Of a DNA stretch of 64,000 nucleotides, positions 12,093-58,418 are shown in pieces. The DNA is taken from the NCBI GenBank assembly GCA_021605075.1, contig BPLQ01011166.1, forward strand, positions 471,264-535,263, in the 5' to 3' direction. The first letter of the stretch is position 1. The number at the start of each line of letters is the position of its first letter. The stretch comes from Caerostris darwini (taxonomy: Eukaryota). The notes beneath the pieces are model-generated. The model was not told the origin of the DNA, made no database searches, and saw only the letters and a list, made by a program, of their open reading frames with translations. The position numbers and the translations under genes are program-made.

Positions 12093-12446
12093 TTCTAATT
12101 ATTCTTTACCAACCCGAATTAAACTTAAGTGAAAACCACGTTTCGTATTCTTGCAGTTAGTCCCTTGCCAGTTTCCAATCTTAAACTTAAAAAATATTAT
12201 TGAAAACAACTAAACTCTAATCTGACTCTTATTTAAATTTGTCCAACTAGTACAGTGAATTTTTATGGCAAAAAAATTCTATACGAATTTTAAAAATGAA
12301 CTATTTTCTATTTTCTTTGTGCTTTTTGTATAAAAAAAATGAAATTAAAAGATGATCTTTTGTATAATATAATTTTCAAAAAAATATTTATTTTATAAAA
12401 AAAATTTTTTTTTTCTGACCTCAAACAATATGCAGTCCATTTTCTT

Positions 12447-12970
12447 GGGGTCTAGCTGCACAATCTAACAAGAAATCTGTACAAATTATTCAAAACAAAC
12501 TTCTTCGTATTATCACTGGTGCACCCTGGTTTGTCCGCAACTCTACAATTCATCAAGATTTGAAAATTGATTCTATTGACAACTATATTACTAAACTTTC
12601 TAGAAATTTCTTCAATACCATTGCTACTCACGAAAACCCTCTCATCAAGGCACAAACTATATTTACGCAATTGAATGGAAAATACAAGTATCCTTTCTCT
12701 ACTTCTAAATGGAATCGAAGCCTCAAACCACCATAATTTTCTGCTCACTTATCGCTTTTTAGATATTTTACTTCAACGCATATTTACTGATCATAAATTT
12801 CTTGTTACGTTTCCATCACCGATGATTTACATTTTCCTTACTTTCTTCTTTTTTTTTTCTCTCAAATCATACGATTACTATTATCTATTTATCATGACTT
12901 TTCTTTCCTACTGCCTTCACATACCATTGAGCTTCGCGTTCAGGCACTCGACATCTTTATTCAACAATGA
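12447..12970 (+). mobile_element. 5'-truncated copy (3'-terminal ~525 bp) of the plus-strand LINE family also seen at 55206-58418
   Basis: About 93-95% identical to 57886-58418. Encodes the ORF2 C-terminal tail (...LLRIITGAPWFVRNSTIHQDLKIDSIDNYITKLSRNFFNTIATHENPLIKAQTIFTQLNGK). Sits ~350 bp upstream of the RPL23A start codon. Confidence 0.8.
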
Positions 12971-13745: not shown

Positions 13746-16434
13746 CTACTGATTGATGTTTATAACACATCTAGGTCTTTTACGAGACGAGTGCAGAGAA
13801 ATATCATATTCAAATTGATTTAATGCTTGGATGACAGAGTTACTAGATCTATTGAGTGATGAATAAAAGTTTTTTGCAATTTTAGCCACATATTCCCTAA
13901 AGCTAGGCATGGAAAGTGCATATTTAATTTCGTTGTTTCTAAAATACCATGGGGCATCAACAATCATGCATATAACTTTGTTTTCAAGCCGTTCTAAAAT
14001 AATAAAATTGCTTTTGGCTGTAGAGCCCCAGACTGGACTCGCATATGCTATTATCGGACGAAGATAAGCTAAATAGATTAGTGTTTTTAGTTCAATTGTT
14101 AGTTTAGAATGTCTGCCCATGACAGAGTAAAATTTACGCAAAACATTATTAAATTTATCGCGCAAGTAGTTAATATGAGCCTTAAATGTTAGTCTTCTAT
14201 CAAAAATTACACCTAAATACTTAGCTTCTTTAGACCAGGAAATGTTAGTATTAAAAATAGTTATGTTAGGAGGATTATAGACTTTTTTCCTGGTAAATAG
14301 CACTGCTTCAGTTTTCGTGACATTGAGTTTAATTTTCCATTTTTCTAGCCATGATTCAAGAGTGTTGATGTAGTTTTGTAAGTTTTTCTGGATGATGTGT
14401 AAATACCTTCCCTATGTAATAATTGCTGTATCATCAGCGTAGAGTGTCAATTTAATTCTGTGGTCTTGTGGAATGTCATTAGTGAAAATATTGTACAGGA
14501 AGGGCCCCAAGATCGATCCCTGAGGAACACCCGCGAGAATCTCGCAGTTTTTAGAATCAGTATTGTTAACAGAAATGATAAGACTTCGCTCAGAAAGATA
14601 GTTGTAGATAATTTTGATAATGTATGGAGAGTAATTATAGTTAATCATCTTATAAATTAGCCCCTTTATCCAAACCCGATCAAAGGCTTTCGCCACATCG
14701 AGGAAAATTACTGCAGTGTCCTGCTTCCATGAAAATCCTTCATTGATGGTTTCAGAGAGGTTGTACAGTTGGTGCGTGGTAGAAAGATCCTGCATAAAAC
14801 CAAATTGTTGAGATATTAGAATGTTCAGAGCCCTAGATTCATGATTAAGCAGATCAGCAATCACCCGTTCAATAATTTTACTAAAAGTAGAAAGTAAAGA
14901 AATCGGTCTATAGCTATGAGGTGAAGTAGGATCTTTGCCCGGTTTTAAAATAGGAAGTATTCTAGCAGTTTTCCATGTTTTTGGAAAGTAATTAAGAGTT
15001 AAAATAGCATCTGTTATGTTGCAGATTTGGAGAATGCATTTGAAGGGAATATTTTTAAGCATCTTGTTAGTAATGCAGTCAATACCAGGCGTCTTGCTAA
15101 TTTTAAGGTTAGAAATAATGTTAATCACTGAAGAGGCTTTAGTGGAAGGAAAGTTACTGTTAGTACTATTATGCCGAGTTAGAAAAGACGCGATGGTGCT
15201 TTCAACATCATTATCCACCTGAATATTGTTGGATGGGTTTTCTTGAAATTGATCCTGCAGCGAAGTTGCTAGAATTTCAGCTTTTCGGATGTCAGTAGTA
15301 ACTTCTTCATTGCTATCCTGTAGTGAATGTATTTTAGACCTTTTCTTACGAAGGTTGCTGCAGAGTTTCCAGATCGAACCATTCTCAACTTTTGCTGTTT
15401 CAAGGCGCCGATCCCAACAATCATTCCGGTATTTTGCAATTGCCCTTTTAAGAATATTCTGGTGATGATTATAAACATTTTTGCTGCGAGGATCACGATA
15501 AATTTGCCATAGTTTACTCGCGTTGTTCCTATTAGTTATCAGAGTTTTAATAGAAGGGGTAAGTAGGTTTTATTGTTAGTAGGAATAGGCTTAGAGGCAG
15601 CTTGATGCGCAGTAATGATTTTATGTGTTAAGTCTTTAATGGCTTCTTCAATATCAAGCGGAGAATTTAATGGCGTAAAAGAGTAATTAAAGTTACGGTC
15701 AAGGATACTAGAAAATTTAGACCAGCAGGTTGTAACAAGCGGGTTAGTCAGAACATGCATAACGCGGAGGTTAAAATCAATAATTACTGGGTTATGATCC
15801 GAAGAAAGTTCGTCAAGCGAATTAATGGTATTAGAAAAATGAAAGTTATTAGTGACAACTAAATCTATAATAGAGGTAGAGCGAGTGCCAATTCGAGTAG
15901 GAGTGTTAGGAGCAATAATATCTAAATTATAGTTATTCGCATATCTTTGCAAAGCAGCGCCAGTATTATTTTGGTTAGTACAGCCCCAAGCAGTATGATG
16001 TGCATTAAAGTCCCCGCGAGTATAACACTATTATTCAAAGAAAATAAAACGTCTAAATCATGAGTAAGATTAGAGGAAGCAATTGCATTAGGAACATAAA
16101 CAGAGCTAATAAAAAGAGAGGGAAGATTCGGAAAATTTAAAGAAATAATAGTGGCTTTTATCCCGATTAACTGTGGAGTATCTATATGGCGATGTGGCAG
16201 AGAAGCTTTGATAAAAATACCCGTGCCCCCAGAGAGAGGATCTTGAGGTCCATCGTTTCTATAAAAAGTGTACCCCATTAAAGAAGGTGTTTGTGAGTGC
16301 CTAAGGTGTGTTTCCTGAATCAGTACTATATCTGGGTTATAATTATCAACAAAGTTAGTAAATTCAGTCAATTTGTACCAAATATTGCATGCATTCCAAT
16401 AGCATATGCGAAGACCAGAAATCAACTGAGTCAT
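13746..16434 (-). pseudogene. LINE ORF2 (endonuclease-reverse transcriptase) split by frameshifts into at least 4 ORFs
   Basis: Pieces 15922..16434 (APE endonuclease), 15539..15952, 14412..15218 (RT fingers/palm with the YADD motif) and 13746..14303 (RT C-terminal). Confidence 0.75.
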
Positions 16435-16823
16435 TACGGGGCATTTTGGATAGTTTGGGATGCAAGGCCATTGACAAAGACCTGCAACTTATCAGCTTTA
16501 TTGTCTGTACTCCTTACTTGGTGGAGAATACCATCTAGATCATTAAGATCAGAGAAAATAGCAACGAACTCCTTCATAAGAAGCAGGGTTTTTTGAATAA
16601 ATTGGGCTTGGCTAGCAATGCCCTGCAATTGGCTCAGTTGATTTGAGGTTAATTCATTATTAACAGTAACAGCATTACCAGAGTTGCTTTGTGGTGGAGA
16701 TAAATTTTTTGCTGCAGCTGCATACGAGAAATTTTGAGAAACCTGACGAACAGGAGTATACTTAGGAAAAGTTGCGTATTTAGCAGTATTAATTTTTATC
16801 TTTGGAAACTTCGAACAGCCTCG

Positions 16824-18239
16824 CTAGGCAGCCGTGTGGCCGAATTGACCACAATTAATACACTGTGGTATCTCCAACTTATCATATAGCTTGCATTCCT
16901 TATAGGAATGTTCTTCGCCGCATTTTAGACAACGGGCTTTGAAGCCGCAGTTATTTGAGCTATGATGAAAGAAATTGCATTTAAAACACTGCAGCGTGAT
17001 AGGTTTCTTATTATATCTCTCAACAGCTACAGCTAAATACATTAACCGATTCAGCTTAAAAATATCCTGATTCTTATTAGATCGAGACAAGGTGATTTGA
17101 AATATGGGTAGTGGCTGTTTGTCTTTGGTCCTGGTAAGTTGCGTAACCTTTTCGGCAATGAAGCCTTTGTCTGCCAGGGCAGATTTAATGTCATCCGTAT
17201 TGGTATCCCGATGAAGTCCTTTAATAACAGCCTTTAAGGGCCTAAGGAATTTCGGAGTTATTACAAAGAATTCAATTCCACTAGTACTCAAAAATTTAGT
17301 AATAGCTCTGTGTTGGACTTTCGAATTGGGAAAAATCTTTAGCATTTCCCCAGCAAGCTTTATAAAAACATCCCCTTGGAAATGTTCATCTATTAATTTC
17401 AACATATCATTCAGGTTACCTTTGGGTTTGACCATTACTGGTGGCATCTTGCGAACAACCGTAACAGTTTCCTCATCTACAGCTGCGTCAGTGCTAAGTG
17501 CTTGATATTGATTTGTAGTAACTAAATTCTCACTTGCAGACGACTTATTCAGAGTATAGTTTGCCTCAGCAATTTGTTTTTTACTTGGGGTGCGAAAGTC
17601 CCCTGATTCATTAACATTAGTACTAAGTTGACTAGCATTTCTCTTATTCTTATGTTTTACACTAACATTTACTTTGCTAGAGTTGCTAGCATTGATAGGA
17701 TTTACAGTTTTACTATTAGTACTTTTAACAACATTCTTAACATTATTAACAGCATTCAAATTACTATTACTACTACTATTAACAGGTAATTTAGTACTAT
17801 TGTGCAAATTGCAATTCTCAATAGGACAATGAAATCGACTCACCCACTCCTCCAGGAACTTGCGCTTCTGCATCAGATTCTCAGTCATCTGTAAATAATC
17901 TTGCTGGAGATCAGATCTTTTCGCATTGGCTGGATCTTTTCGCACTATGGAATCGATGACATCCATTTCCTTAAGGGCAGTAGTCAGTTGGCGGCACATT
18001 CCCTCAGGGGAGACTTTTTCAGCCGTATTATCAACATTGCTTGCACCTGCATGTGGAGAGGGTACTTCCGAAACCTGTGGCGAGAGTACTTGCGGCGGGT
18101 CCTGAGAAGGTCCGTTCCCCTCGGTGTTAGTATCCATCTGATTCAACGATTGGCAGTAGAAACTATGATCATGATCAATGTTCATGTTCAATGTTCTCAA
18201 CTGATCGTACAGGAAAAGTTTTATAAACGAATATCTCAC
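16824..18239 (-). CDS. LINE ORF1 protein (471 aa) with three CCHC zinc knuckles, apparently intact
   Basis: C-terminal CFKCNFFHHSSNNC, CLKCGEEHSYKEC and CINCGQFGHTAA knuckles. Ser/Asn-rich low-complexity middle region. Confidence 0.75.
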   Translation of the reverse strand: MRYSFIKLFLYDQLRTLNMNIDHDHSFYCQSLNQMDTNTEGNGPSQDPPQVLSPQVSEVPSPHAGASNVDNTAEKVSPEGMCRQLTTALKEMDVIDSIVRKDPANAKRSDLQQDYLQMTENLMQKRKFLEEWVSRFHCPIENCNLHNSTKLPVNSSSNSNLNAVNNVKNVVKSTNSKTVNPINASNSSKVNVSVKHKNKRNASQLSTNVNESGDFRTPSKKQIAEANYTLNKSSASENLVTTNQYQALSTDAAVDEETVTVVRKMPPVMVKPKGNLNDMLKLIDEHFQGDVFIKLAGEMLKIFPNSKVQHRAITKFLSTSGIEFFVITPKFLRPLKAVIKGLHRDTNTDDIKSALADKGFIAEKVTQLTRTKDKQPLPIFQITLSRSNKNQDIFKLNRLMYLAVAVERYNKKPITLQCFKCNFFHHSSNNCGFKARCLKCGEEHSYKECKLYDKLEIPQCINCGQFGHTAA

Positions 18240-42296: not shown

Positions 42297-43820
42297 GGAA
42301 TCTAATGTAGTTTAAATTGGCAATTGTAGAATTTATAATTAATTGTTGAAATACTTTTACAAATTACACATGCAGTTCAAAAAAGTAAACTAGCATATAA
42401 CAGACACTTTTTAAAAATGTCAAATATCAAAATAATTAATTTAAATAGTAACTTCATTATAAAATTATTAAAAATTCTACATTAAAAAAGAAATATTATA
42501 TTTACATGTTGCATAATATTTTACAAATTCAATTATGTACATAAAACATTAATAAACTACTCTCAATATAGAAATTTTTTCATCCTAAATGTGCCTTTTT
42601 TATGAGTTACAATAATATCACAAAATTTAATTAATCTCCAGTCAATTCATACAATGTTAACAGGAAATATAGACTTTATCATGGCATAGAATACTGTTCC
42701 GAAATTCAAAAAGAAATATAGTAAGAATTTCTCTTTCAATGACATAAATAAATATACAATATGTATGAAAGAATTAAGATATAATTTGCTGCTTATAATG
42801 ACTATAATTCAAAAGTATAATTTGCAGAATCATTATTCAAGTTGCTTAATACATTGCAATTATTCGTTTTAAAAAATTGTAATAACTATAGGCAATATTC
42901 AATATTTAAAGGAAGATCTCACATAAAACAAACATTTGCAAATCTAATCAAAAGAATAAGAACATAGTAATTATACATAACTAAAAAAATCATAATCCAT
43001 AACTTTGATACGAACAACAAAATGTATAATTTTAAAACTATTCCTTTGTACATAATGAAAGTTTAAAGATAAAATGGATAGGCTGTTTAAAAAGAAAGCA
43101 AAACAATTTAACCAAAAAATTGCTATAAAACAATATTTTGCATTTTATGTGCAAATTTCAGTTAATTGGGACTTTTTAAAAGTTAATTAAAAATATTATT
43201 AAAAGATAAACATAATTATATATATATATATATTATTAATATTTTTAATATACATAAAATATCTCTCTCATTATTTATATATATATATATAGAGAGAGAG
43301 ATTTTAAACTCTTTTGGGAATTTTCCCATATATATTTATTTGTAAATATGAAAGAAATTTATTTTTATAAATACTACTTTTAAAATTCATAGAATTGTGA
43401 TTAGCTACATAATTTTTCAATACAATTTATATGTTTGTTATTTTTATTATTATATATATATTCATACAAAAGATTATTTAAATATGAACTTAATCTATAA
43501 AGTAAATAAAATTTAAAAGAACATTACTTTCAGATGAGGAGGCAAGAGGCGGCCAATCAACGTTATATAAATCCAGAATTTTATGAAAATGACTATTGCA
43601 GTACAATTAAAATATTACAATATTGCATAAAATCCTAATCATATAATGATTACACTTGATCAGCCGGTATTGCACCAAGTTACCGGCAGTCTTGCAATCA
43701 AGTGACGCCCAATGTTTTCAATGAAACGCCAATGATTTGACTTGACTTGACTTGATTGTTAATGTTTCGATTTGTTTTATTTTGCTTGTGAACAAAAATT
43801 TCTAAAAATCTATTGACGGT

Positions 43821-43920
43821 TTTTTTTTTTTTTTTTTTTTTTTGGTTTTTTTTCCCCTTAGTGTAAAGAAATTGAAGAGAAAATTCTAATAAAAGTTTTT
43901 CTGAACAAAATTTCTTCCCT

Positions 43921-43957
<37 letters not shown>

Positions 43958-44104
43958 ACTCATGTGAAATGCTACTATTATTTTAAAAGTAGCACATACG
44001 ACACATTAAAAGCACAGCTTGTTAATCGAAGCCTGCCTACAATACATGATTAAATGAGTTATCGTTTGGACTTCGAGCTGACCAGGGTTTTTTTTTTTTT
44101 TTTT
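43821..44104. repeat. Cluster of three long poly-T / pyrimidine-rich tracts (T25-T32) within ~290 bp
   Basis: T-runs at 43821-43850, 43921-43952 and 44086-44104, each followed by a TTCCCCT-like pyrimidine motif. Confidence 0.6.
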
Positions 44105-44874
44105 TCTTCCCCTCTCCCTCAAATCGGTTTGTTTTCTAATGTTTCTCCTCATTGGTATGTGATTTTTTCCCCTCTTATTCTGTCTTAATCTCCTTATTAC
44201 CTTTCTCTATTTGATTTCTTTGGTTCTATGTTATTATTTTGTTGTATAAAATGAGTAGCTAAATTCTAGAATACTTTTTTTTTTCCTTCTGTATTTTACT
44301 GTGTAGGCGTAGAATTGTTCGGGCTTTTTTAGCTACGAGCGTTTCTCACTGCCTTTACTCAGTAAAGTGCATATTTATATTCCGTTTTAGTCAGTAGTTT
44401 TTTTTAAATATTTGGTTTTGTTTATTTTATTCTATTGTATTATGGCTGTTGTCGAAGGAGTTTCGCTCTCCTCAAACAGCACAACTATGTCTCTCTCCCC
44501 TGCTGACCAATCAACTAGTATTGTCGAAAATGATGCCGAACAAGAACTTTTTGATTTGTATGTCACGTGAACACTTTTCCTCTCTTAACTGTAACCAACC
44601 GTACTTCGGTTTAAGAACTGTACTTCCTTGTTAGTAGTTAGCCGCGCTAAGATGCGCTTTCTCTGTCTGTATGTCTGTCTGTAAATTTTTGTATCTTCTC
44701 GTCATTAATATGCTGAAATAAAATATTTAAATAAGAATATTGGAATGAATTGGCTGCTTCCCGCCCCTTTGGATACCTCTTTCTTCAATAATCCTGGAAC
44801 TGGAAGGGTAAGAGAAATTTTGTATGAACCTTTCTAGTTTTATTTTGGAGGATTGTTTTGGTGAGGTAAAATTT

Positions 44875-44894
44875 GGCATCCCTGCCGGGATTGT
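44875..44894 (+). other. Candidate primer-binding site of the BEL element (TGGCATCCCTGCCGGGATTG, complementary to a tRNA 3' end ...CAATCCCGGCAGGGATGCCA)
   Basis: Starts with TGG, and its complement ends in a T-arm-like TTCAATCC...CCA. It lies 15 nt after the last base shared by the two LTRs, so the LTR end is uncertain. Confidence 0.35.
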
Positions 44895-45163
44895 AGTCAG
44901 TTAATATTTAGATGAGATACTTTTAATTTTGAAATGGCGAGTGACGAAAATAGTAAAGAGAAATTATATTTGTTAAAAAAAGAAACGGAGTGTTTCTAGA
45001 ACATCCGTTACAAAAATTCTAACAAAATTAGAATCGGAACTATCGAACATTGAAGAAATAGATATTGATAAATTAGAAGAATTAGTTGAAATGCTAACTA
45101 CTAAACATGACTCGTTGAAAGAAATAGATAACAAATTAGAACCTCTTTACGAAGTAGAAGATA

Positions 45164-46426
45164 TTGAAACTGAAATTGAAAATACAGACGAATATGATGA
45201 AAAAAGTTGCCCTGTGGAAATTTCGTGCAAATAAAAAAATTCGCTTGTTAAAAAAAGAATTGAGTGAAAATAAATGCGAAACACTTTCCGAACAAAATAA
45301 AGAATTAAATGAGTCGAAACAAGTTAACAGTATAAGAGTAAAATTGCCGAAATTAAATATTTCCAAATTTTATGGTGATATCAATCAATGGCTAACGTTT
45401 TGGAATAGTTTTGAATCTGCCATTCACAATAATGATTTATTAAATAAAGTAGATAAATTTAATTACCTTAAAGCTCATTTAGGTGGTACTGCTTTAAATA
45501 CTGTAGAAGGTTTTTGTATTTCTGCTTCTACGTATGATTCGGCAATTAATTTATTAAAAGAAAGATTTGCAAGAAATGATCTATTGATACATACTCATAT
45601 GAATAATATTTTAAACATAAAATCATTGAGAAATTCCAACGATATTTGTTCTTTTAGAAAATTCTATGACAAAATTCTAACAGAATTAAGAAGTTTGGAA
45701 AGTTTAGATTTGAAAATAGAAAATTATTCCGCTGTTCTCTGCCCTATAATTCTAAAAGCCCTTCCTCAAGATATTCTTATAGAATATAATAAAACTGAGA
45801 ATGAAAATGCTTATAATAATATCGAAGAACTACTGAAGTTTTTAGCTTTGACCTTGAGATCGAGAGAACGCGCAGCCATGATGAGTAATAATTTCGCAAT
45901 CACTTCTGATTTTCGACCTCGGCCCTTTTCGCCTCTCGATAAAGTAAACGACCGCGGCTCAAGTAATAAATTAGGTTGGGAAAGAATTCCTTCAGGAGCA
46001 GAATTAGTTTCAACTAATGTTAATGAAAGAAATAAAAATATAACAAATTGCGTTTTTTGTGAGTCATCGGATCATCCTAGTTCTACTTGTGAATACGCAA
46101 TAAATTTGTCTATTGAAGAAAGAAAAAATATTTTGATGAAAAAGGGAGCTTGTTTTAAATGTCTTGAAACTAAAAAACATATTTCTCGATTTTGTAAGAG
46201 TAATGTAATTTGTTCCCACTGTTCAGGAAAACATTCTTCGATCATGTGCTTTTCAAAATTTAAACAGAAACAAATTAATAAAAATGAATCTTCAGAAACT
46301 ACTGTTCTTACCAATCAGTCATTTTTGAATGAAGTTTATTTGCAAACATTAGTAGTTCGAATCCATAATAAAAACGTAGAAAATTATATTCGGGTAATTA
46401 TTGATACTGGATCACAAAGAAGTTGA
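45164..46426 (+). CDS. BEL/Pao gag + N-terminal protease (420 aa), truncated at the protease DTGS motif by the nested insertion
   Basis: Pao-type gag motifs (KFNYLKAHLGGTALNTVEGF...YDSAINLLKERFARNDLL), Cys/His clusters and C-terminal IRVIIDTGSQRS. Confidence 0.75.
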   Translation: MKLKLKIQTNMMKKVALWKFRANKKIRLLKKELSENKCETLSEQNKELNESKQVNSIRVKLPKLNISKFYGDINQWLTFWNSFESAIHNNDLLNKVDKFNYLKAHLGGTALNTVEGFCISASTYDSAINLLKERFARNDLLIHTHMNNILNIKSLRNSNDICSFRKFYDKILTELRSLESLDLKIENYSAVLCPIILKALPQDILIEYNKTENENAYNNIEELLKFLALTLRSRERAAMMSNNFAITSDFRPRPFSPLDKVNDRGSSNKLGWERIPSGAELVSTNVNERNKNITNCVFCESSDHPSSTCEYAINLSIEERKNILMKKGACFKCLETKKHISRFCKSNVICSHCSGKHSSIMCFSKFKQKQINKNESSETTVLTNQSFLNEVYLQTLVVRIHNKNVENYIRVIIDTGSQRS

Positions 46427-46626
46427 ATTTTCCGCTAGAATAAAAATAGAACGTAGTAAGCGTTCGAAGTAGAATAAACATGTCGTAATTGTGAAAATTG
46501 ATTATCGTCTTTTATTTTGCCGTCTGGATTTTAATAACACTACGCAACCTTTACAATACCGCCACATACTTGGTGACCCGTGAATTGTTTGCAAACAGTG
46601 AATTATTTACAAAATGACTGAATCTA

Positions 46627-47437
46627 ATGAATCGGCGAAAAAAAGATGAAGTAGCGCGGGTAAGTGTCAAAATACCTCCTTTTTGGGCTGAAAAACCAGA
46701 AATATGGTTCTTTCAAGTTGAAGCACAGTTTTCAATTTGTGGAATAACAGCCGAGGATACAAAATTCAACTACTTAGTTTCGCAATTAGAACCGAAATTT
46801 GTTGAAAGTTTGTGGGACATTATAAGTGATGATAATAGAACAAAATATACCGCTGCTAAAGAACGTTTGCTGAATACTTTTAAAGAAAGCGAAAATAAGC
46901 GTCTTCAGAGACTGCTGACAGGACTTGATTTGGGAGATCTTAAACCCAGTCAACTTTTACAAAAAATGAAAAACCTGGCTACTGATGGAATAACTGATAA
47001 GGTACTAACAACATTATTTCTACAAAAAATGCCTGATTCTGTGCGGAATATTTTACTAGTTAGTGATGAAAATTGAAAAACTGGCATTAATGGCGGATCG
47101 TATTCTTGAAATGCAACCAAAACAAGAACTTTACCGCGTAAGCAATAATGTTTCATCAGGATCAGATGCCATGACTGAGTTACAACAACAAATTACATCT
47201 TTGGAAAATAAACTTGAAAAACTGAGTGTCACAAGGAACTCTCGTTCCCAAACAACAAATAGCGGTCGATACTCTTCTTCTCATCGAAGTAAGTCTCGCA
47301 ATCGCTCTTACAATCCTTCTGGCAAATACTGTTATTACCATTTTCGTTTTCGAGAAAAATGTTTTCCTGATAAATGCAAAGCTCCATGTGCATGGAAAAA
47401 CAATCCTTCGGAAAACCAGAATCAGCAACAGAATTAA
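46627..47437 (+). CDS. Gypsy-like gag (two overlapping ORFs, one frameshift) with Cys/His motif CYYHFRFREKC
   Basis: Retrotrans_gag-like motif PPFWAEKPEIWFFQVEAQFSICGI...KFNYLVSQLEPKF, with a basic C-terminal tail. Confidence 0.65.
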
Positions 47438-47519
47438 CGGCAGACTCTGCTGCTGAAATACAACATATTGCCGTCAATACCGTCTATTTGTCAACGACAA
47501 AAAAACGGGTTTACGCTTT

Positions 47520-48557
47520 TTGGTTGATAGTGGAGCGGACGTAAGTCTTATTCCTTCTACTTCTAAACACAAATTTATTAGTGACTATAAATTATATGCT
47601 GCAAATAATACTGCAATCGATACTTTTGGTACAGAAATTTTAAATCTTGATCTAGGTTTACGCCGAGAATTTCAATTCCCATTTATTGTGGCCAAAATTA
47701 GTAAACCTATACTAGGTGCAGATTTTTTAAATAAGTTCAATTTATTAATTGATATAAAGCATAAAAGATTAATTGATGGTGTAACTAACCTTGCAGTTTA
47801 TGGTGACATTGCACCCATCTCTATTAATGAAAGTGTAAATACAACGAGCAGCTTATGTAAATATTCTGATTTATTTTCTATGTATCCCAATATAACAAAA
47901 CCAAATTTTCTTGTTTCAAATGTTAAACATAATGTAAAACATCATATTGTAACTAAAGGACAACCTATAAATTGTAAAGCAAGACAATTAGATCCAAAAC
48001 GGTTGGAAATAGCTAAAAGAGAATTTAAATATATGCTAGACAATAACATCATTAGTCCATCTAGCTCAGAATGGGCAAGTCCATTACATATAGTAACAAA
48101 GAAAGATGGTTCTTTTCGTCCATGTGGTGATTATAGAAGATTGAATGATTTAACTATACCTGATCGATATAACATACCTCGAATCCAGGATTTTCAACAT
48201 ATTTTAACTAATAAAACTATATTTTCTAAAATTGACATTACTAAAGCATATTATCACATTCCTGTAGCAGATGAAGATAAGGCAAAAACTGCCATCATCA
48301 CACCTTTTGGACTTTATCAATTCAATGTGATGAGTTTTGGTCTCAAAAATGCCCCTGCAACATTTCAAAGGTTTATAAATGAAGTTCTTTATGGTCTAGA
48401 CTTTGTGTTTCCATACTTAGATGATGTGTTGATCGCCTCTTCTTGCGAGGAAGAACATCGTTCACATCTTAAAATAGTTTTCCAGCGTTTAGATAAATAT
48501 GGTCTACGGATTAATATTAGCAAATCAGTTTTGGGAGTACCTGTAATAGATTTTTAG
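47520..48557 (+). CDS. Gypsy-like protease-reverse transcriptase (345 aa)
   Basis: MVDSGADVSLIP (the aspartic protease D-S/T-G motif); RT motifs SPLHIVTKKDGSFRPCGDYRRLN, FGLKNAPATFQRFINEVL and YLDDVLIAS. Confidence 0.8.
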   Translation: MVDSGADVSLIPSTSKHKFISDYKLYAANNTAIDTFGTEILNLDLGLRREFQFPFIVAKISKPILGADFLNKFNLLIDIKHKRLIDGVTNLAVYGDIAPISINESVNTTSSLCKYSDLFSMYPNITKPNFLVSNVKHNVKHHIVTKGQPINCKARQLDPKRLEIAKREFKYMLDNNIISPSSSEWASPLHIVTKKDGSFRPCGDYRRLNDLTIPDRYNIPRIQDFQHILTNKTIFSKIDITKAYYHIPVADEDKAKTAIITPFGLYQFNVMSFGLKNAPATFQRFINEVLYGLDFVFPYLDDVLIASSCEEEHRSHLKIVFQRLDKYGLRINISKSVLGVPVIDF

Positions 48558-48831
48558 GCTATCAAATATCTGCGGAAGGTTCACTACCTCAACCTCAAAA
48601 GATCAAAGCTATCATAGAATATCCATTGCCAGAAACTATGCACGAATTACGTTCCTTCTTAGGAATGATCAATTTTTATCGTAATTATATAAATAATGCC
48701 GCAAAAACTCAAGCCCCTCTACATGAACTTTTGAAAGGATCTACAAAAAAGATCGACGCAAAATACCATGGACCGATGAAACTAGACAAAGTTTTGAAAA
48801 ATGCAAACAAGATGTTGCTCAAATAGCGTTA

Positions 48832-50568
48832 ATGGCATATCCCAACTCGGATTACCCTCTGGCACTTCTCACAGATGCATCTGATTGGGCTATTGGATCA
48901 GTTATTCAACAAAAAGAACCAAATGGATGGAAGCCAATTGCATTTTTTTCTAAAAAACTTAATGATGCTCAGAAAAATTACAGCGTTTATGACCGTGAAC
49001 TTTTGGGTATATATTTATCCATTAAACATTTTAAGCATTTACTTGAAGGTCGAGATTTTGATATTTATACTGATCATAAGCCGTTAATATTTGCTTTTAA
49101 GCAAAACAATGATAAAGCCTCCCCCAGACAACTCAGACATCTACAATATATCTCACAATTCTCTACTAACCTATACCATATCAGTGGTCGAAACAATGTA
49201 GTAGCAGACAGACTGTCTAGAATTGAGGACATCGATTCACCTATTGTCGATTATGACTTGATAGCTGATGCACAAATTAATGATGATGAACTGCAACAAT
49301 TGAAATTACATTCCAAATCATTACATTTTAAAGAACACCAATTGCCATCAGGAAAGCTCTTGTATTGTGATACCTCTACTTCCAGTATCAGACCATTCAT
49401 ACAAAAAAATTTTCGAATGACAATATTTAATACAATTCACAGTTTAGCTCATTCTGGAATTCGAACTACTGTAAAAGAAATAACTAAAAGATTCATTTGG
49501 CCAAATATGAAAAAAGATGTTAAACAGTGGACTCAAACTTGCATCAACTGTCAGAAAAATAAAATAACTAAACATACAAAATCAGAATATTCACAATTTC
49601 AAGCACCAGATGAGAGATTTAGTGTCGTTCATATAGATTTAATTGGACCTTATTCACCTTCCAATGGATACACATACTGCTTGACGTGTATTGATCGGTT
49701 TACCTCTTGGATGGAAGTGGTACCGTTATCAAATATCACTGCAGAAAGTATAGCAAAAGCTTTTTATGAGCATTGGATTACCCGATTTGGTGTACCTACT
49801 TGTGTTATTACTGACAGAGGCACTCAATTTATTTCAGAACTATTTCGAAGTTTAGCTGCGCTATGTGGTGTTAAAGTAAACCATACGTCTTCTTACCATC
49901 CTCAGAGTAATGGAAAAGTTGAACGTCTTCACCGTACCTTGAAAACAGCTATTAGATGTCATAACAACGTTCGTTGGACGGACACATTACCAACGGTTCT
50001 TATGGGTTTGCGAGCTGCTCTACATGAGGACTCTAAGTATACAATAGCTGAAATGGTTTATGGAAAAACTATTAAATTACCAGGCGAATTCTTTGAAGAA
50101 TCCAAATTGCCAATATATGATGATAATTTTGTAAGCAATCTCCGAAAACAGATGGCTGACTTAAAACCATACCAATCCAAAAACAAATGTAAACAAAAGA
50201 TCTTCATTCCAAAAGATTTGTACACATGCTCACATGTATTTCTGCGAATTGACAGAGTTAAAAAACCTTTAGAACCCCCATATGAAGGACCCTATTTGGT
50301 ATTGCAAAGATCCCCGAAAAACTTTCTTCTATCAATTAAAAATAAACAAGTTAATATTTCAGTGGATAGATTAAAACCGGCATATGTGTTACAACCTAAT
50401 GAACTTCTGAATCCAACGTCATCAAATGATCATACATCTGTGCCGAGTGAACAAACATTTATACCAAGTCAGCAAGTTGCACAACCAAATACAACAACAC
50501 GTTGTGGAAGACAAGTAAAACTTCCTGTTCGTTTCAATGACATTATTGACTTTTCTTCAAATTTATAA
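48832..50568 (+). CDS. Gypsy-like RNase H-integrase (578 aa)
   Basis: RNase H (LTDASDWAIGSVIQQ, TDHKPL). Integrase zinc finger (HSLAHSGIRTT...CINCQKNK). DDE core (VVHIDLIGP, TDRGTQF). GPY/F C-terminal (PYEGPYLVLQRS). Confidence 0.8.
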   Translation: MAYPNSDYPLALLTDASDWAIGSVIQQKEPNGWKPIAFFSKKLNDAQKNYSVYDRELLGIYLSIKHFKHLLEGRDFDIYTDHKPLIFAFKQNNDKASPRQLRHLQYISQFSTNLYHISGRNNVVADRLSRIEDIDSPIVDYDLIADAQINDDELQQLKLHSKSLHFKEHQLPSGKLLYCDTSTSSIRPFIQKNFRMTIFNTIHSLAHSGIRTTVKEITKRFIWPNMKKDVKQWTQTCINCQKNKITKHTKSEYSQFQAPDERFSVVHIDLIGPYSPSNGYTYCLTCIDRFTSWMEVVPLSNITAESIAKAFYEHWITRFGVPTCVITDRGTQFISELFRSLAALCGVKVNHTSSYHPQSNGKVERLHRTLKTAIRCHNNVRWTDTLPTVLMGLRAALHEDSKYTIAEMVYGKTIKLPGEFFEESKLPIYDDNFVSNLRKQMADLKPYQSKNKCKQKIFIPKDLYTCSHVFLRIDRVKKPLEPPYEGPYLVLQRSPKNFLLSIKNKQVNISVDRLKPAYVLQPNELLNPTSSNDHTSVPSEQTFIPSQQVAQPNTTTRCGRQVKLPVRFNDIIDFSSNL

Positions 50569-50971
50569 TTCATCCATTCCATTTTAAAAATTAACTTGAT
50601 TTATGTATGTAAATGTTTATATGTAATTGTATTTGTAATTATTTTGTGCAATTTCAATTTGTATCAATGTGTATTTGTTCGCTATTATTTGTATTGATAT
50701 ATTAATTCGTCTACCATTTTCAAAGTAACGTAACTTTGTTACTGGTAGGGGAGTGATGTAGCGACACCTATTGATGTAAAATGGAATACAAATTGAACGA
50801 CTTCTACTTTCACTGTTAAAAAAGGGAATTTTCCCGCTAGAATAAAAATAGAACGTAGTAAGCGTTCGAAGTAGAATAAACATGTCGTAATTGTGAAAAA
50901 AAAGATAAAAGAATATATTTGAGTGACAGGAAAAATTTGCTTGGAACAAAAACATCTTCCATGGAAGTTAT

Positions 50972-53900
50972 GTGGAACATCTTAGTAGCTGTTCAGACAA
51001 TTCTGGGATGGACAGTAATGGCAAAAAAATTTCTGATGCTAAGTTAGATAGTTCTCTTCTTGTTCTGTCATTATACATAAATGATGCTAAAATTACAGAC
51101 TTATGGAATTTAGATTCGTTGGGTATTTTAGATCCTAGCGAAAAGCAATCGAAAGAAGAAATGCAGAAATTAGTTTGGGAACATTTCGAATCAACAGTTA
51201 GCAGAGAAAATGACGGAAGATATATAGTATCTCTTCCTTGGATAGATAGATGTCCTTCAATTCCTGATAATAAATATTTGGCTCAGAAACGTTTAAAAAA
51301 TACTGTTAAAAATTTGAATGCAAACAACTGTTTAGTAGAGTATGAACAAGTGTTTAAAGAATGGGAAGAAGAAGATGTTATCGAAGAAATAGTACCTGGT
51401 CCAAATTGTTATGAAGTCTCAAGTGTACACTATTTGCCGCATCGAGCTGTCATAAAAGAAAATTCTACTACCAAAATAAGACCAGTTTTTGATGGTTCAG
51501 CTCGTGTTAATAACTCTATATCTTTGAATGATTGTATTGAAAAAGGACCCAATCTCATTGAACTGATTCCAGCTGTTTTGAATCGATTTAGGTTGGGTAA
51601 CATTGGTGTCACTGCTGATATTCGTCGAGCATTTTTACAGATATCTTTAAATGAAAAGGACAGAGACTATTTACGCTTCTTATGGTGGAAAGAAGGTGAT
51701 CCTGAAAATGAAATTATTTATAGACATTGTAGAGTTGTTTTTGGCATTAATTGCAGTCCCTTTTTGTTAGCTGCAACTCTCAATCATCATTTGAATCAGA
51801 CAACCAAAGAATTTAAAGAGATAGCTGAAAAACTACAAGAATCTTTATATGTGGACAACTGCGTAGCAAGTGTTGATTCAGAAGAAGAATTAAAGTATTT
51901 TTGTAATGAATCACAGAAATTATTGCAATCAGCTAAATTTGATCTACGTGGTTGGAAACATACTAAATTTAAAGAAACTGTATTGAATCAAGAGGAGAAT
52001 GAAGATGAAGTCGAAGTTCCTTTGTTAGGTTTATCTTGGAATACAGTTGATGATACTTTATCATGTGATTTCAGAAAATTTAAATTAGAAGATGAACCCA
52101 TTACAAAAAGGAAAATATTGTCCTTAGCTCATAAGATTTTTGATCCAATAGGATTCACTTGTCCTGTGACATTAGTTCCGAAGATAATACTACAAGAATG
52201 TTGGAAAATCAAAGTTTCTTGGGACACAAAATTGCCAGAAAACATAGTAAAGATGTTTAAGAAGTGGAAAAACCGAATTATCGAATTAAAGAAAATTGCT
52301 ATCCCTCGAAGATTATCCCGATTGTCATTCAAGCAGGGTAAATTATCTATTCACGTATTCTGTGATGCCTGCAAAACATCTTATGCTACTTGCATATTTT
52401 TAAGAAATGAGTTTCAGGATCAAGTGACTTGCCAACTACTTCAAGCTAGATCCAGAGTAGCCCCTCTAAAGAACATAACTATCGTGAGGTTAGAATTACT
52501 AGCCTGTTGTATTGGAGCAAGACTTGCTGATACAGTTAAGAAAGATTTGAAACTTGAAGATGTTGATGTATTTTATTGGTCAGACTCTATGGACGCTTTA
52601 CATTGGATCAAGAAAGAAGGCCCATGGAAGACATTTGTTGAAAATAGAGTCAAAGAAATTAGAAAATTATCTGAAGTAACTTCATGGAAATTTGTACCTG
52701 GTCATCAAAATCCAGCTGACCTTCCCTCACGAGGTTGTAATGCCGAAGAATTAGTGAAATCTCAATGGTGGGAGGGACCTAGTTGGCTCTATCAATCTTT
52801 TGAAAAATGGCCTACTTCTGAAATGTTTCCTGATTTAGAAGTTGTTAATTCAGAAAAAAAAAGAAAAGTTGTTATATCTGCATCTAATATCGAAACAGAA
52901 ACTTTTGAATATTTTTAAGAATTTCGTCTTACAAAAGATCGTAAGAATTATGGGGTGGATACTTCGTTTCATCAACAATATTAAGAAAAGGGTAAATGAA
53001 AGAACTTTTTGTAACTTAAGTGTTGAAGAATGTGATAAAGCGGAGAAAATAATTTTAAGAAAAGTTCAAAGAGAATGTTTTGAGAAAAACAGAAATCTTT
53101 CAATGCAGACCTATTTAGATCCAGATGATCTCCTTAGAGTAAAGACAAGAATTATACAAAGAAAAGATCAAGAAGTTTTCGATATCCAATTTTGCTACCA
53201 TCAAAGCATCATATAGTAGACAAATTAATATTTGACAAGCATGTTGAACTTTGCCATGCAGGTATACAAGTCTTGATGTCTACGTTACGAGAAGAATATT
53301 GGATTATAAAAAGCAGAAAGACTATTCGTCAAGTCATTAGAAACTGTCTCCGATGCAAAAGATTTTCCATACATCCTCTTCAATCTATTAGTGCTCCACT
53401 CCCCGAAGATAGAATAAGAGAAGCTCAAGTATTCGAAGTCATTGGTGTAGATCTGTGTGGACCATTGTTTTTGAAAGACAACAAAAAATGTTGGATTGTC
53501 TTATTTACTTGTGCTATTTTTCGTGCTGTTCATTTAGAACTTGTAAGTTTTCTTTCTACAGATAGCTTCATATTAGCTTTAAGAAGATTTATCTCTCGTA
53601 GAGGAAGACCTTGTACAATATATTCTGATAATGGTACAAATTTAGTTGGTACATCTAATGAACTGAAATCTGTTAATTGGGAAAAAATAGAAGAATTTGC
53701 TGCCATTAAGAAGATTAATTGGAAATTAAATCCGCCATCAGCCCCATGGTGGGGTGGATTTTGGGAAAGACTTATTGGTATGTTAAAAGGAATAATGAGA
53801 AAAATCTTGGGTAAAGCTAGTCTGCATTATGAAGAAATGCATACTGTTATATGCGAAGCAGAAAGCATAATTAATTCAAGACCATTAACATATCTGTCTG

Positions 53901-54520
53901 AAGACATAGAAGATCTTATTGCACTTACACCAGCAATGTTCATTCAAGAAATAAAAGAAGTTGGAATGCCGGATTTAGATCAGATGGATTCTAAAAGAAT
54001 GAATAAACGATTTATGTATAGACAAAGACTTCGTGAAGATCTCAGAAGGCGATTTCGAAATGAATACCTTGGTCAACTAAAAGAATTTTCCAAACTCCAG
54101 GAAGAAGCAAAAATTAAGGAAGGTGATATCGTCTTGATTGGTGATAGCAACATGAAAAGACTAAATTGGCCTTTAGCAAAAGTAGTGAAACTTTTTCCTG
54201 GTAAAGACAATAAAGTTCGAGTTGTTGAATTGAAAACCAAGAATGGGTGTTTCATAAGACCTATACAGCGCTTATATTCATTAGAAATTAGACAAGATGA
54301 AAGGTGTGCCTTGCAGAGTAGGACTCCACCATCTGACTCCTTCCGCAACAAGTGCCCCGACACTGATGATTCCACATCAGATCCAGTGACTGTCATCGAA
54401 TCCAGTGATTGTCCACAATCTATTGACTGTCAACCATATGACAGGTGTGATAATAGTGATACTTATCAGACATCCCGTTGTGGAAGAATCCTAAGATCTC
54501 CTAAGCGATTGGACTTATGA
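50972..54520 (+). pseudogene. BEL/Pao pol (protease C-terminal part, RT, RNase H, integrase), in 3 overlapping ORFs with 2 frameshifts, GTG-initiated in the ORF track
   Basis: ORFs 50972..52918, 52842..53216 and 53192..54520. Pao-type RT (DIRRAFLQISL, YVDNCVAS). Integrase (HAGIQVLMSTLREEYWI, CLRCKRF, SDNGTNL). DUF5641-like tail. Confidence 0.75.
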
Positions 54521-55205
54521 TTTTGAGTTTCATTATTCTCTTGAAACTCAAAGGTGGGAGAATGTCGAAAATGATGCCGAACAAGAACTTTTTGATTTGT
54601 ATGTCACGTGAACACTTTTCCTCTCTTAACTGTAACCAACCGTACTTCGGTTTAAGAACTGTACTTCCTTGTTAGTAGTTAGCCGCGCTAAGATGCGCTT
54701 TCTCTGTCTGTATGTCTGTCTGTAAATTTTTGTATCTTCTCGTCATTAATATGCTGAAATAAAGTATTTAAAAAAGAATATTGGAATTAATCGGCTGCTT
54801 CCCGCCCCTTTGGATACCTCTTTCTTAATAATCCTGGAACTGGAATGGTAAGAGAAATTTTATATGAACCTTTCTAGTTTTATTTTGGAGGATTGTTTTC
54901 CAAGCATCAACAATTTTCATCAATCAGCAACTTCAGACATATCGAATAACCATGAAATGAAAGAACTTCTACTCATGACCAAATTCTTTTGGAGTTTGTT
55001 TCGTTATCTTTAATATTTTTGCGATGAAAAAATCGGAACAAAATGTGTTGACCACCGTTACCGGAGTTTTGCAGATCGAACTAATGTTCCTCAATTATAA
55101 TTGACAACCAGACGGAAGAACTTCCCAAATGCCTTTTGCAAATTAAAAGTTTTTCAACCACACCTGGATGACTACAGAATTGATCACGACCCATCCAACC
55201 TATAA

Positions 55206-58200
55206 ATGTCAAGAATTGTCCTAAAAACCCTGCTAATTTCACTCCTGCTCCTCCCAAAAAAGGTCAACGCTTGGACGGAGAGACTTAAAAAACAATTACA
55301 ACAAATGAAGCCTGAAAACTCCAACCAATTGTCTCTTGAACATCAGAAGGCTTCTCCAACTCTTCCTCCTTCTTCAGATGACTTTCCAACTCTTTTACCC
55401 AGACCTCTCACCATACTACTTCTCCAATACTCTGCAGGCTTCCACGGAAACACCTCCAATTCCACTCATTCTGCAACAATTAGTTGGGGTACTTTCAAAT
55501 CTTTCTGTTTTAATAACTGCTCTTCAAAATCAACCAGTCAATAACATTCAATAGATCGACCAATAATTCTATCTTATGCGTGACTTGGAACTCCAATAGT
55601 CTTAAAGGAAAAATTAATGATTTACAAAATTTTATATCTGAAAATAAACCTCATGTATTTGCTCTCCAAGAAACACATCTTCGGCCAGGCGATTCCTTCA
55701 AAATTCCAAATTATATCATATATCGCTCCGATCGTCTTACCCACAGAGGAGGAGGCACGGCTATCTGCATTCATAAAAATATTAATCATCATCAAATTCA
55801 TTTTACTACAACCAGCTTTGAAAACTCTGCTATCGTTATTAATCTCAAGAATAACCTAAAAATTACTGTTGCTAGCATTTATCACCCTCCAATTGGTAGA
55901 TTCCTCACACAAGAACTTGATACAATAGCGAACTCGAATCAACAAGTACTTCTACTTGGTGACTTCAATTCCAAGCATCCTGCATGGAATAATGGACGCA
56001 GCAACATAAATGGTTCTATTCTCTTCGATTGGACAAATCTTAATGCATTCAATGTTATTGCTCCTAATGATCCCACGTATTTCTGCCTTCACAATCCCTG
56101 CAATAGTACTCTTGACATCGCACTTCTTAAAAATTTAAACGCTGGGCCTGCTTCTACTATCAACGATCTTTCCAGTGATCATAACCCTGTGATAGTTGAA
56201 GTGTCTCCTAATTCATTTACGCCCTTCCTCAATAGCCTAATCACAACTACCAATTGGAATATTTTTACTAAAATTCTCTTTCAAAGCATTCCTGATAATC
56301 CAGTCATCTCCAATATTCAAGATATTGACAAAATAATTGATAAATTCAACTATGCTGTTATTTCTGCTATCAACCTTGCTAACAAATCTAAAGAACTCAG
56401 TACACCACACCAAAAACTTCCGACTGAAATCACCTCTAAAATTGCGGGAAAAAACAGAATTCGAAAATTATGGCAAGATACAAGGTTTCCTCCGTTCAAG
56501 CAATCCTTCAACAAGCTTCAAAAAGAAATAAAGCAAATGATTCACAAATTAAAAAATGACAGATGGAATGAATTTTTATTAGGCCTAAATCCAGAAGATA
56601 ATTCTCTCTTCAAAATTAACAAGCATTTTACCAAAAAATATCCCAAAATTCCTCCACTGGTAGGATCCCCCGGTCTTATATTCTCATCTTCTGATAAAGC
56701 GAACTCTTTTGCTGAAAACCTTGAACTCTCCTTTCAAGAACACTGAACCTTGCTATTACTCACAAATTGAGCATGTTGAAGATACAGTAACTTCCTTTCT
56801 AGCTGATCATCAAAATTATCATAACAATATTTTTTTTTCTCCATCTGACATAATTAACTTAATCAAGAATCTCAACATTCGGAAATCTTCTGGACCTGAC
56901 AGCATTCCAAATAAAGCCTTAATGTGTCTCCCCCTTAATGCCATTACTCATCTTGCAAAAATCTGCAACAGCTGTACTAAATATCACTACTTCCCTCCTA
57001 TCTGGAAAAAAGCAAATATCATCATGTTCCCAAAACCTGGAAAAGATAGGAAATTTCGTCAAAATTATCGGCCTATCAGTCTCCTTAGCTGTCTAGGAAA
57101 CATCACTCAACTTGTCATCAACTTCTACGTGTCACCAATATCATCACTGAAGGATATAACTATAAATATTTTACAGGAGGTGTCTTTCTAGATGTCAAAA
57201 AAGCTTTCGATCGACTGTATCACAATGGACTGATCTACAAAATGATCAAACTTCAATTTCCAACTTGGATCCCACTTATCATTACAAATTATCTTAAAAT
57301 TAGAACCTTTCAAGTTCAACTTCATAATGAATTCTCCAAAATCGGTCGTATTTGTGCTGGTATACCACAAGGAAGCGTGCTAAGTCCTGTTCTTTACAAT
57401 ATCTTTACCTACGACTTTCCTCAATGCACTAACATCTCCACTTGCCTATTTGCTGACGATTCTGCTGCTCTTGCCCAAGATGCTTCTTTATTAGATATAC
57501 TTTATTTATTAGATTTATTAGATTAGATACTATTAGATATTTCTGAATATCCTGGAGGATTGGCTAACTAAATGGCGCATCGCAATTAATGTCTCTAAAT
57601 CTCAAGCTATCGTTTTCCGAAAAGGTCACGCCAGACAACCATATATTAATCTCTCCCTTTTTGAACAACAAATTGAATGGGCAACTAATATTAAATATCT
57701 CGGCTTAATTATAGACAATAAACTTACGTTTCGAGCTCATATTCAAAAAATCAAAGAAAAATGTTGGAAAAAATTTTATCTCTCTCTACCACTCATTAAT
57801 AAATTTTCTAAATTAACTTTGTCAAACAAACTTCTTCTCTACAAACAAGTTCTTAGGCCTATCCTTACCTATGCTGCCCCAATCTGGGGTCTAGCTGCAC
57901 AATCTAACAAGATATCTGTACAAATTATTCAAAACAAACTTCTTCGTAGTATCACTGGTGCACCCTGGTTTGTCCGCAACTCTACAATTCAACAAGATTT
58001 AAAAATTGATTCTATTGACAACTATATTACTAAACTTTCTAGAAATTTCCTCAATACCATTGCTACTCACGAAAACCCTCTCATCAAGGCACAAACTATA
58101 TTTGCGCAATTGAATGGAAAATAGAAGTATCCTTTCTCTACTTTTATATGGAATCGAAGTCTCAAACCACCATAATTTCCTGCTCACTTATCGCTTTTTA

Positions 58201-58418
58201 GATATTTTACTTCAACGCATATTTACTGATCATAAATTTCTTGTTACGTTTCCATCACCGATGATTTACATTTTTCTTAGTTTCTTCTTTTTTTTTCTCT
58301 CAAATCATACGATTACTATTAACTATTTATCATGACTTTTCTTTCCTACTGCCTTCACATGCCATTGAGTAGATGAACGCTTCGCGTTCAGGCACTCGAC
58401 ATCTTTATTCAACAATGA
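55206..58418 (+). mobile_element. Non-LTR retrotransposon (Jockey/R1-like clade, a family distinct from the minus-strand LINE), with APE endonuclease and RT. ORF2 is frameshifted, and the 5' region and ORF1 are unclear
   Basis: Endonuclease ORF 55580..56746 (LQETHLRPGDSF, GGGTAICIH, LLLGDFNSKHPAWN, SDHNPV). RT pieces 56709..57191 (the ORF reads YRPISLL; YFPPIWKKANIIMFPKPGKD also present), 57242..57526 (the ORF reads FADDSAA) and 57819..58124 (LLYKQVLRPILTYAAPIWG). The 3' end at ~58418 is defined by the end of homology with the truncated copy at 12447-12970. Confidence 0.75.

Follow-up and report, generated by a model that had tools for sequence, protein, structure and literature searches.

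The described systems closest to the structure reported here, a Ty3/Gypsy-type sequence occupying positions 46425-50899 inside a BEL/Pao retrotransposon, are two kinds of retrocopy. The structure lies in a 64-kb stretch of AT-rich eukaryotic DNA (contig BPLQ01011166.1), which was analysed as a whole and is called the window below. In the first kind, formed by LTR (long terminal repeat)-mediated retroposition, retrocopies inside LTR elements replace part of the internal open reading frames (ORFs), target site duplications (TSDs) and poly(A) are often absent, and the junctions carry microsimilarity with a median of 6 bp; Pao/BEL elements, BATUMI of Drosophila and BEL18_AG of Anopheles, are among the carriers, and Ty1-mRNA chimeras of yeast are cited in the same work (Tan et al., 2016; PMC5131818). 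The second kind comprises the HERV-W processed pseudogenes made by LINE-1 (long interspersed element 1), in which the internal region is whole, the 5′ LTR consists of the repeat and unique 5′ regions (R-U5) and the 3′ LTR of the unique 3′ and repeat regions (U3-R) (Pavlicek et al., 2002, via PMC5016936).

The present locus resembles the LTR-mediated chimeras in that the cargo lies in the same orientation within a BEL/Pao-group carrier that has both LTRs, part of an ORF is replaced, the cargo has no TSD, and a short overlap is found at a junction. It differs in that the cargo would be the complete RNA of an LTR retrotransposon of another superfamily (about 4.5 kb), not a fragment of a cellular mRNA, and in that the host is chelicerate-like, its best matches being spiders. 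The shape of a retroviral RNA is shared with the HERV-W pseudogenes, but these have poly(A) tails, TSDs of 5-15 bp and a TT/AAAA motif and occur anywhere in the genome, whereas the Gypsy cargo has neither TSD nor clear tail, has cost target sequence, and is co-oriented within BEL. Compared with an ordinary nested Ty3/Gypsy provirus, one LTR-type element with a complete gag-pol likewise sits within another, but the LTRs here are incomplete in complementary ways, no TSD exists, and host sequence was lost.

The best explanation of the insert is a copy of a full-length Ty3/Gypsy genomic RNA, in the order R-U5-primer binding site (PBS)-gag-pol-polypurine tract (PPT)-U3-R, and not an integrated provirus. 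That the cargo has the truncated R-U5/U3-R structure and replaces BEL sequence can be stated with high confidence, and its derivation from an RNA template is probable.

A Ty3/Gypsy Sequence Replaces Protease Codons of a BEL/Pao Element

The carrier extends over 44522-54899 and keeps both LTRs. It was assigned to BEL/Pao by its LTRs, a DUF1759 gag, a DxGS protease (PR), reverse transcriptase (RT), a Peptidase_A17 region, integrase (IN) and DUF5641; DUF1759, Peptidase_A17, RVT_1 and DUF5641 were detected as Pfam domains. The transposable element (TE) proteins of the window have their closest counterparts, at 55-72% identity, in spiders and further arthropods (Araneus, Trichonephila, Uloborus, Cordylochernes). 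The carrier comprises the following features, all on the + strand.

44522-44859, +, 338 bp: BEL/Pao 5′ LTR (TGTCG...GTTTT), a direct repeat with 54563-54899 in which 331/338 positions are identical.
45164-46423, +: BEL gag (DUF1759) followed by the N-terminal protease portion up to ...IIDTGSQRS, from the ORF, Pfam, and tblastn of spider BEL polyproteins that end at 46423.
50895-50903, +: 3′ junction, with GAAAA at 50895-50899 belonging both to the last bases of R and to the codons GAA AAA AAA with which BEL resumes.
50895-54520, +: resumption of BEL, with the end of the protease region (EKKDKRIYLSD...VAVQTILGW), RT, the Peptidase_A17/RNase H region, integrase and DUF5641, from ORFs, Pfam, tblastn and alignment.
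54563-54899, +: BEL/Pao 3′ LTR, preceded by the PPT AAAGGTGGGAGAA, from the direct repeat with the 5′ LTR.

The BEL gag-PR ORF (45164-46426) has the C-terminal end ...IRVIIDTGSQRS, with its last codon at 46421-46423 and its stop at 46424-46426, immediately after DTGSQRS as had been noted in the preliminary description of this locus. Coding of BEL pol, there placed as re-opening at about 50924, resumes instead at about 50895. Consistently, spider BEL polyproteins align by tblastn through 46423 and then from about 50895, and the 74-95 codons that follow DxGSQxS, up to ELKxxxIxLSD / EREPNEI, are absent. The lost stretch amounts to ~0.22-0.29 kb of protease coding sequence between ...CAAAGAAGT and GAAAAAAAAGAT. 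In a multiple alignment, EKKDKRIYLSD of the resumed BEL matches the conserved (E)LKxxxIxLSD of BEL proteases, and VAVQTILGWTVM, further along, matches the LGW motif; an alternative tblastn register, EREPNEIHILLGAD, begins at the same nucleotide as the EKKDKRIYLSD register. Because 74-95 codons are missing in either register, BEL was replaced and not merely interrupted. No other large deletion (none over 50 bp) was found in either element. The earlier placement of the Gypsy sequence in the BEL protease holds as to location, three codons after DTGS, but the event does not have the look of an integrase-mediated insertion, BEL codons being lost and no TSD being present.

The carrier is now non-autonomous, given ~3 frameshifts in BEL pol (51026-51047, about 52900 and about 53200) and additional in-frame gaps in the protease tail relative to spider homologues.

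The cargo, which shares the orientation of its carrier, shows what characterizes Ty3/Gypsy (Metaviridae), namely gag followed by PR-RT-RNase H-IN in this order and a YxDD motif. Two coding regions were delimited.

46627-47437, +: Gypsy gag (DUF7041 and a basic, zinc-knuckle-like tail) with one frameshift near 47070, from the ORF, Pfam and comparison with relatives.
47520-50568, +: Gypsy pol, with PR (DSGA), RT (YLDD), RNase H and an integrase whose end is GPY/F-like; two frameshifts, one near 48550 and one near 48750; full length when compared with the homologue P0001.

Compared with relatives (P0001/P0002), gag as well as pol has its full length, with three frameshifts altogether. The Pfam domains of the cargo are the DUF7041 gag, RVT_1, RT_RNaseH, Integrase_H2C2 and rve, the last four of which form a domain set carried by 2300 homologues, and its translations contain YLDDVLIAS and the GPY/F-like C-terminus. 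The domains and translations hence bear out the earlier report of a complete gag-PR-RT-RH-IN element with these Gypsy hallmarks.

The cargo is bounded by direct repeats at 46425-46497 and 50826-50899, which are identical over 74 aligned positions apart from one indel and do not have TG...CA ends. No TSD is visible at the junctions of the cargo, and self-BLAST revealed no second copy of the Gypsy insert or of BEL parts in the window.

LTR Landmarks of the Gypsy Family Lie Outside the Direct Repeats

Nine contigs encoding relatives of the Gypsy pol were compared. Eight of the relatives (L001-L006, L010 and L011), which come from spider genomes and Logan contigs, were used in the landmark comparison, with LTRs defined by long direct repeats where genomic flanks exist. 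LTR lengths were 452 bp in L004/L005 and 354-357 bp in L010/L011 (all Trichonephila), 481 bp in L002 and about 230 bp in L006 (Araneus), and TSDs of 4 bp were found in L004 (AATT) and L011 (GGCC). The 3′ LTR of the relatives begins with TGT right behind the block CGTAAC-N3-6-GTTACTGG-NNNN-GGAGT-N-A (also written CGTAAC..GTTACTGGnnnnGGAGTnA), the alignment of which (A1) has 23 invariant columns in seven sequences. Their 5′ LTR ends 2-3 nt ahead of the PBS TGGTGACCC, which is invariant across six aligned relatives (alignment A2), and their AATAAA lies 90-139 nt from the LTR end.

When these landmarks were sought in the window, the following features were assigned, all on the + strand.

46425-46497, +: R, 5′ copy of the 73/74-nt repeat, in a 5′ LTR without U3; AATAAA at 46473-46478; from the repeat, the family LTR start preceding the homologous point of the 3′ copy by 69 nt.
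46498-46568, +: U5, present in the 5′ copy only, T-rich just past the predicted poly(A) site; LTR end at 46566-46568 (about 2 nt uncertain); from its place between the repeat and the conserved PBS.
46571-46579, +: PBS TGGTGACCC, complementary to the 3′ end of tRNA-Trp; unique in the window and invariant in six relatives.
50729-50756, +: family block CGTAAC-TTT-GTTACTGG with the polypurine tract TAGGGGAGTGA (whole block CGTAACTTTGTTACTGGTAGGGGAGTGA); from the 23 invariant columns in seven sequences.
50757-50825, +: U3, beginning TGTAGCGACACC, present in the 3′ copy only and including the purine run AAAAAAGGG; the LTRs of the relatives begin at the homologous TGT.
50826-50899, +: R, 3′ copy, in a 3′ LTR without U5; AATAAA at 50875-50880; from the repeat comparison.

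The PBS at 46571 is the sole occurrence of TGGTGACCC in the 64 kb (0.07 expected); it follows the 5′ repeat at a distance of 73 nt and precedes the gag ATG by 56 nt. The reverse complement of human tRNA-Trp reads TGGTGACCCCGACG..., which TGGTGACCC matches (bioRxiv 10.1101/400127). No tRNA gene was found when the window was searched for a primer source. The match to the PPT block, at 50729-50759, is likewise unique in the window (0 expected), and the LTR start TGTAG at 50757 precedes the 3′ repeat by 69 nt. The PPT block and the tRNA-Trp-type PBS are the clade landmarks that the cargo shares with its relatives carrying a DUF7041 gag.

Since the PPT/LTR start and the PBS both lie outside the 73/74-nt repeat, the first 69 nt (U3) are missing from the 5′ LTR and the last ~71 nt (U5) from the 3′ LTR. 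Read from these landmarks, the repeat itself is the mere overlap of two truncated LTRs, that is, the predicted R. Joining 50757-50899 to 46498-46568 gives a reconstructed LTR of ~214 bp, near the bottom of the family range, which reads TGTAGCGACACC...(R)...CCGCCACA(TA). Compared with the LTR bodies of the relatives it was too diverged, with 48% column identity and no significant BLAST match.

These assignments alter several points of the preliminary description. The direct repeats of about 72 bp proposed there are real, at 73/74 bp, but they do not represent unusually short complete LTRs; AAAAAAGGG is present as reported but lies inside the LTR and is not the PPT, that of the family being at 50729-50756. 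The lack of a TGG directly after the 5′ repeat was rightly observed, the PBS standing 73 nt further downstream, as was the lack of a clear TSD around the cargo. Longer true LTRs, which had been named as the result that would speak against LTRs of 72 bp, were in spirit found, through family landmarks and not through copies in the same genome.

Several observations concern the relatives and the searches themselves. The block CGTAAC-N3-6-GTTACTGG (50729-50745 in the window), with its short inverted repeat GTAAC/GTTAC, is invariant before the PPT in all relatives, in contrast to pol, which is only about 55-65% identical at the protein level; predicted folding of a hairpin in the block was no better than that of shuffled sequence. 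The closest relative with a 5′ region, L012, has a variant PBS, TGGTGACTC (140-165), and an unusually long leader of ~400 nt before gag. L006 (Araneus ventricosus BGPR01050486.1, 1-8664) contains two tandem copies of the Gypsy relative that repeat 2.6 kb at 98% identity; its LTR copies after pol end ...GCATAATCTAAATCCC and the copy before the PBS ends ...GCATAAGCGCGCTACAAAC, and the arrangement is tandem or recombinant. A terminal 30-nt repeat in L002 was considered as a collapsed circle and rejected, the contig simply including the first 30 nt of the next LTR copy at its end. An exact-pattern scan with a 20-mer of R found no match in viral contigs, and three matches in metagenome contigs were dismissed as chance, the contigs being bacterial with 57-59% GC.

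The Insert Has the Order of a Genomic RNA

R-U5...U3-R is the order of the genomic RNA, and no DNA intermediate of normal LTR-element reverse transcription has it in the standard retroviral scheme. Because this order is unique to RNA, the insert, in which the 5′ LTR is R-U5, the 3′ LTR is U3-R and the shared repeat is R, reads as a copy of a genomic RNA. What would mark a provirus is lacking, as there are no two complete LTRs next to the PPT and PBS, no TSD of 4-6 bp and no continuous host sequence; nor does the cargo have the poly(A) tail and 5-15 bp TSD of a LINE processed pseudogene.

The 3′ boundary fits this order. The Gypsy sequence ends 19 nt past the AATAAA at 50875-50880, and the same point in the 5′ copy is followed by the T-rich TTGATTATCGTCTTTTATTTTG; T-rich downstream sequence is typical of a poly(A)/cleavage site, which supports a putative site of this kind at the boundary. 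The motif AATAAA(C)ATGTC is common to the window and L012 and lies comparably far from the PBS in both. Upstream of the 5′ boundary no such signal was relied upon, and a weak DPE (downstream promoter element)-like GAACGT ~28 nt downstream of it, like TATA and initiator reasoning in general, was not used as evidence.

BEL resumes at GAAAAAAAAGAT (GAA AAA AAA GAT) with a 5-nt overlap with the end of R, which would reach 9 nt if the Gypsy RNA was polyadenylated, and the run of 8 A at this junction is readable as the BEL codons EKK. The join at the 5′ junction reads ...AGAAGT-T-GAATTTT.

Possible Origins of the Chimera

A double template switch by the BEL reverse transcriptase, that is, LTR-mediated retroposition, is the most likely origin and would account for the locus in the following way. 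Inside a BEL virus-like particle in which Gypsy RNA was co-packaged, the BEL enzyme would make minus-strand cDNA on BEL RNA, jump at the A-rich GAAAAAAAAGAT onto the polyadenylated 3′ end of the Gypsy RNA, and copy this RNA to, or near, its 5′ end. It would then return to the BEL RNA a few hundred nt upstream of its point of departure, just after the DTGSQRS codons, and the completed chimeric cDNA would integrate as a BEL element. Location within BEL and shared orientation are obligatory under template switching and coincidences under the rival explanations, for which the same orientation is only 50% likely. Template switching is further favoured because location, co-orientation, ORF replacement, lack of a TSD and junction overlap together match the pattern of Tan et al. 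(2016). We give this full mechanism, in which the reverse transcriptase would come from BEL and not from a LINE, an even chance. It is put forward tentatively, at somewhat under even confidence, that BEL/Pao particles of this arthropod took in the complete genomic RNA of a Ty3/Gypsy element unrelated to them and copied it into the BEL cDNA, yielding a composite in which Gypsy can hitch-hike on BEL LTRs.

Some observations weigh against the reading as an RNA copy made by BEL. The example is a single locus, as no other copies of either family were found in the searched collections, where the best protein identity was 61-72%. U3 and U5 were assigned from landmarks and not from a contiguous homologous LTR, the LTR bodies of the relatives being too diverged. 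At the 5′ boundary, the TATA-like TTAAAAAA lies 3-10 nt upstream, too near for a TATA-directed start there, and this boundary may mark a switch of template close to the RNA 5′ end and not the cap site. Microsimilarity was observed at the 3′ junction alone, that of the 5′ junction being readable only against an intact BEL copy, and the A-run at the 3′ junction fits LINE priming on poly(A) equally well. Around the BEL LTRs themselves no TSD was found, the flanks ..CTAGTAT and CCAAGC.. being without extended similarity.

A Gypsy RNA could instead have been retrocopied into an already integrated BEL element, by target-primed reverse transcription of a LINE on the poly(A) or by capture of cDNA at a double-strand break, with a deletion of 0.2-0.3 kb. 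The product would have the same R-U5...U3-R shape as the L1-made HERV-W pseudogenes, the A-run at the 3′ junction with its T-rich bottom strand suits priming on poly(A), and non-LTR elements encoding endonuclease and RT occur in the window. Yet there is no TSD, no poly(A) tail past the A's readable as BEL codons, and a sizeable target deletion has to be assumed together with a chance landing in a BEL element in the same orientation; moreover, all 15/15 polymorphic retrocopies of Drosophila were LTR-mediated and 0 LINE-mediated (PMC5131818). We regard this origin as unlikely. An origin at the DNA level, either from a Gypsy integration trimmed by two deletions across the LTR/BEL boundaries or from a BEL break patched with genomic Gypsy sequence (from inside the 5′ LTR to inside the 3′ LTR), would suit an old TE nest in which both elements are frameshifted; microhomology-mediated joins yield short overlaps such as GAAAA, and the 5′ boundary is not at a demonstrable transcription start site. 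It would, however, require two independent events exactly at the junctions of elements that have no other deletion over 50 bp, and it leaves unexplained why both endpoints fall inside the 214-bp LTRs of a 4.7-kb element and why the 3′ endpoint lies 19 nt past AATAAA, the best poly(A) site of the LTR (chance estimated at 0.03-0.2), which makes it rather improbable.

The near-identical 73/74-bp direct repeats flanking the coding region, with the purine run AAAAAAGGG ahead of the 3′ copy, could also suggest that the BEL protease region received, by integration, a complete Gypsy element whose LTRs were unusually short (~72 bp). Against this, 69 nt separate the family PPT/LTR start from the 3′ repeat that follows it, 73 nt separate the 5′ repeat from the PBS beyond it, the LTRs of the relatives are about 230-481 bp, and the lack of a TSD, the 74-95 missing BEL codons and the repeats without TG...CA ends do not fit, so that this explanation is highly improbable. 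A precedent in naturally short LTRs (Mag-like elements, about 77 bp) was dropped, as a literature search was unhelpful and the relatives have LTRs of about 230-481 bp.

Sequences Flanking the BEL/Pao Element

Just upstream of the BEL element, at 43805-44121, are several long poly-T tracts of 20-30 T. Directly 3′ of the BEL 3′ LTR, a non-LTR retrotransposon on the + strand occupies 54900-58400 of the window; its endonuclease ORF (Exo_endo_phos) covers 55580-56746, and behind it RT-like ORF fragments extend to about 58120. The original 3′ flank of BEL may have been displaced by this adjoining LINE. The final 0.5 kb of the LINE (57885-58400) is duplicated at 12446-12952 with 95% identity. A second non-LTR-type element lies at 13746-18239 on the - strand and contains an ORF at 16824-18239 with PRE_C2HC (ORF1-like) and one at 14412-15218 with RVT_1.

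Significance

The copying of foreign RNA during reverse transcription is a known but seldom documented process, and the present locus is a new example with an unusual cargo, the whole genome of an element of another superfamily. Automated LTR finders and human readers would call such a locus a nested element with ultra-short LTRs, with wrong dating and classification, whereas the PPT, PBS and poly(A) landmarks taken from relatives reveal an RNA-shaped copy. The R region of the Gypsy family (about 74 nt) is thereby read out for free, as in an experiment.

As a clean single-locus example, the chimera suggests that reverse transcription in LTR elements can capture an entire foreign retrotransposon RNA, beyond bits of cellular mRNA, and the example stems from a chelicerate-like genome, where retroposition mechanisms have barely been studied. 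If the chimera amplified, traffic between retrotransposon superfamilies would be documented. If true, this reading would point to a route of recombination between superfamilies and to a spread of TEs that is independent of the cargo's own integrase.

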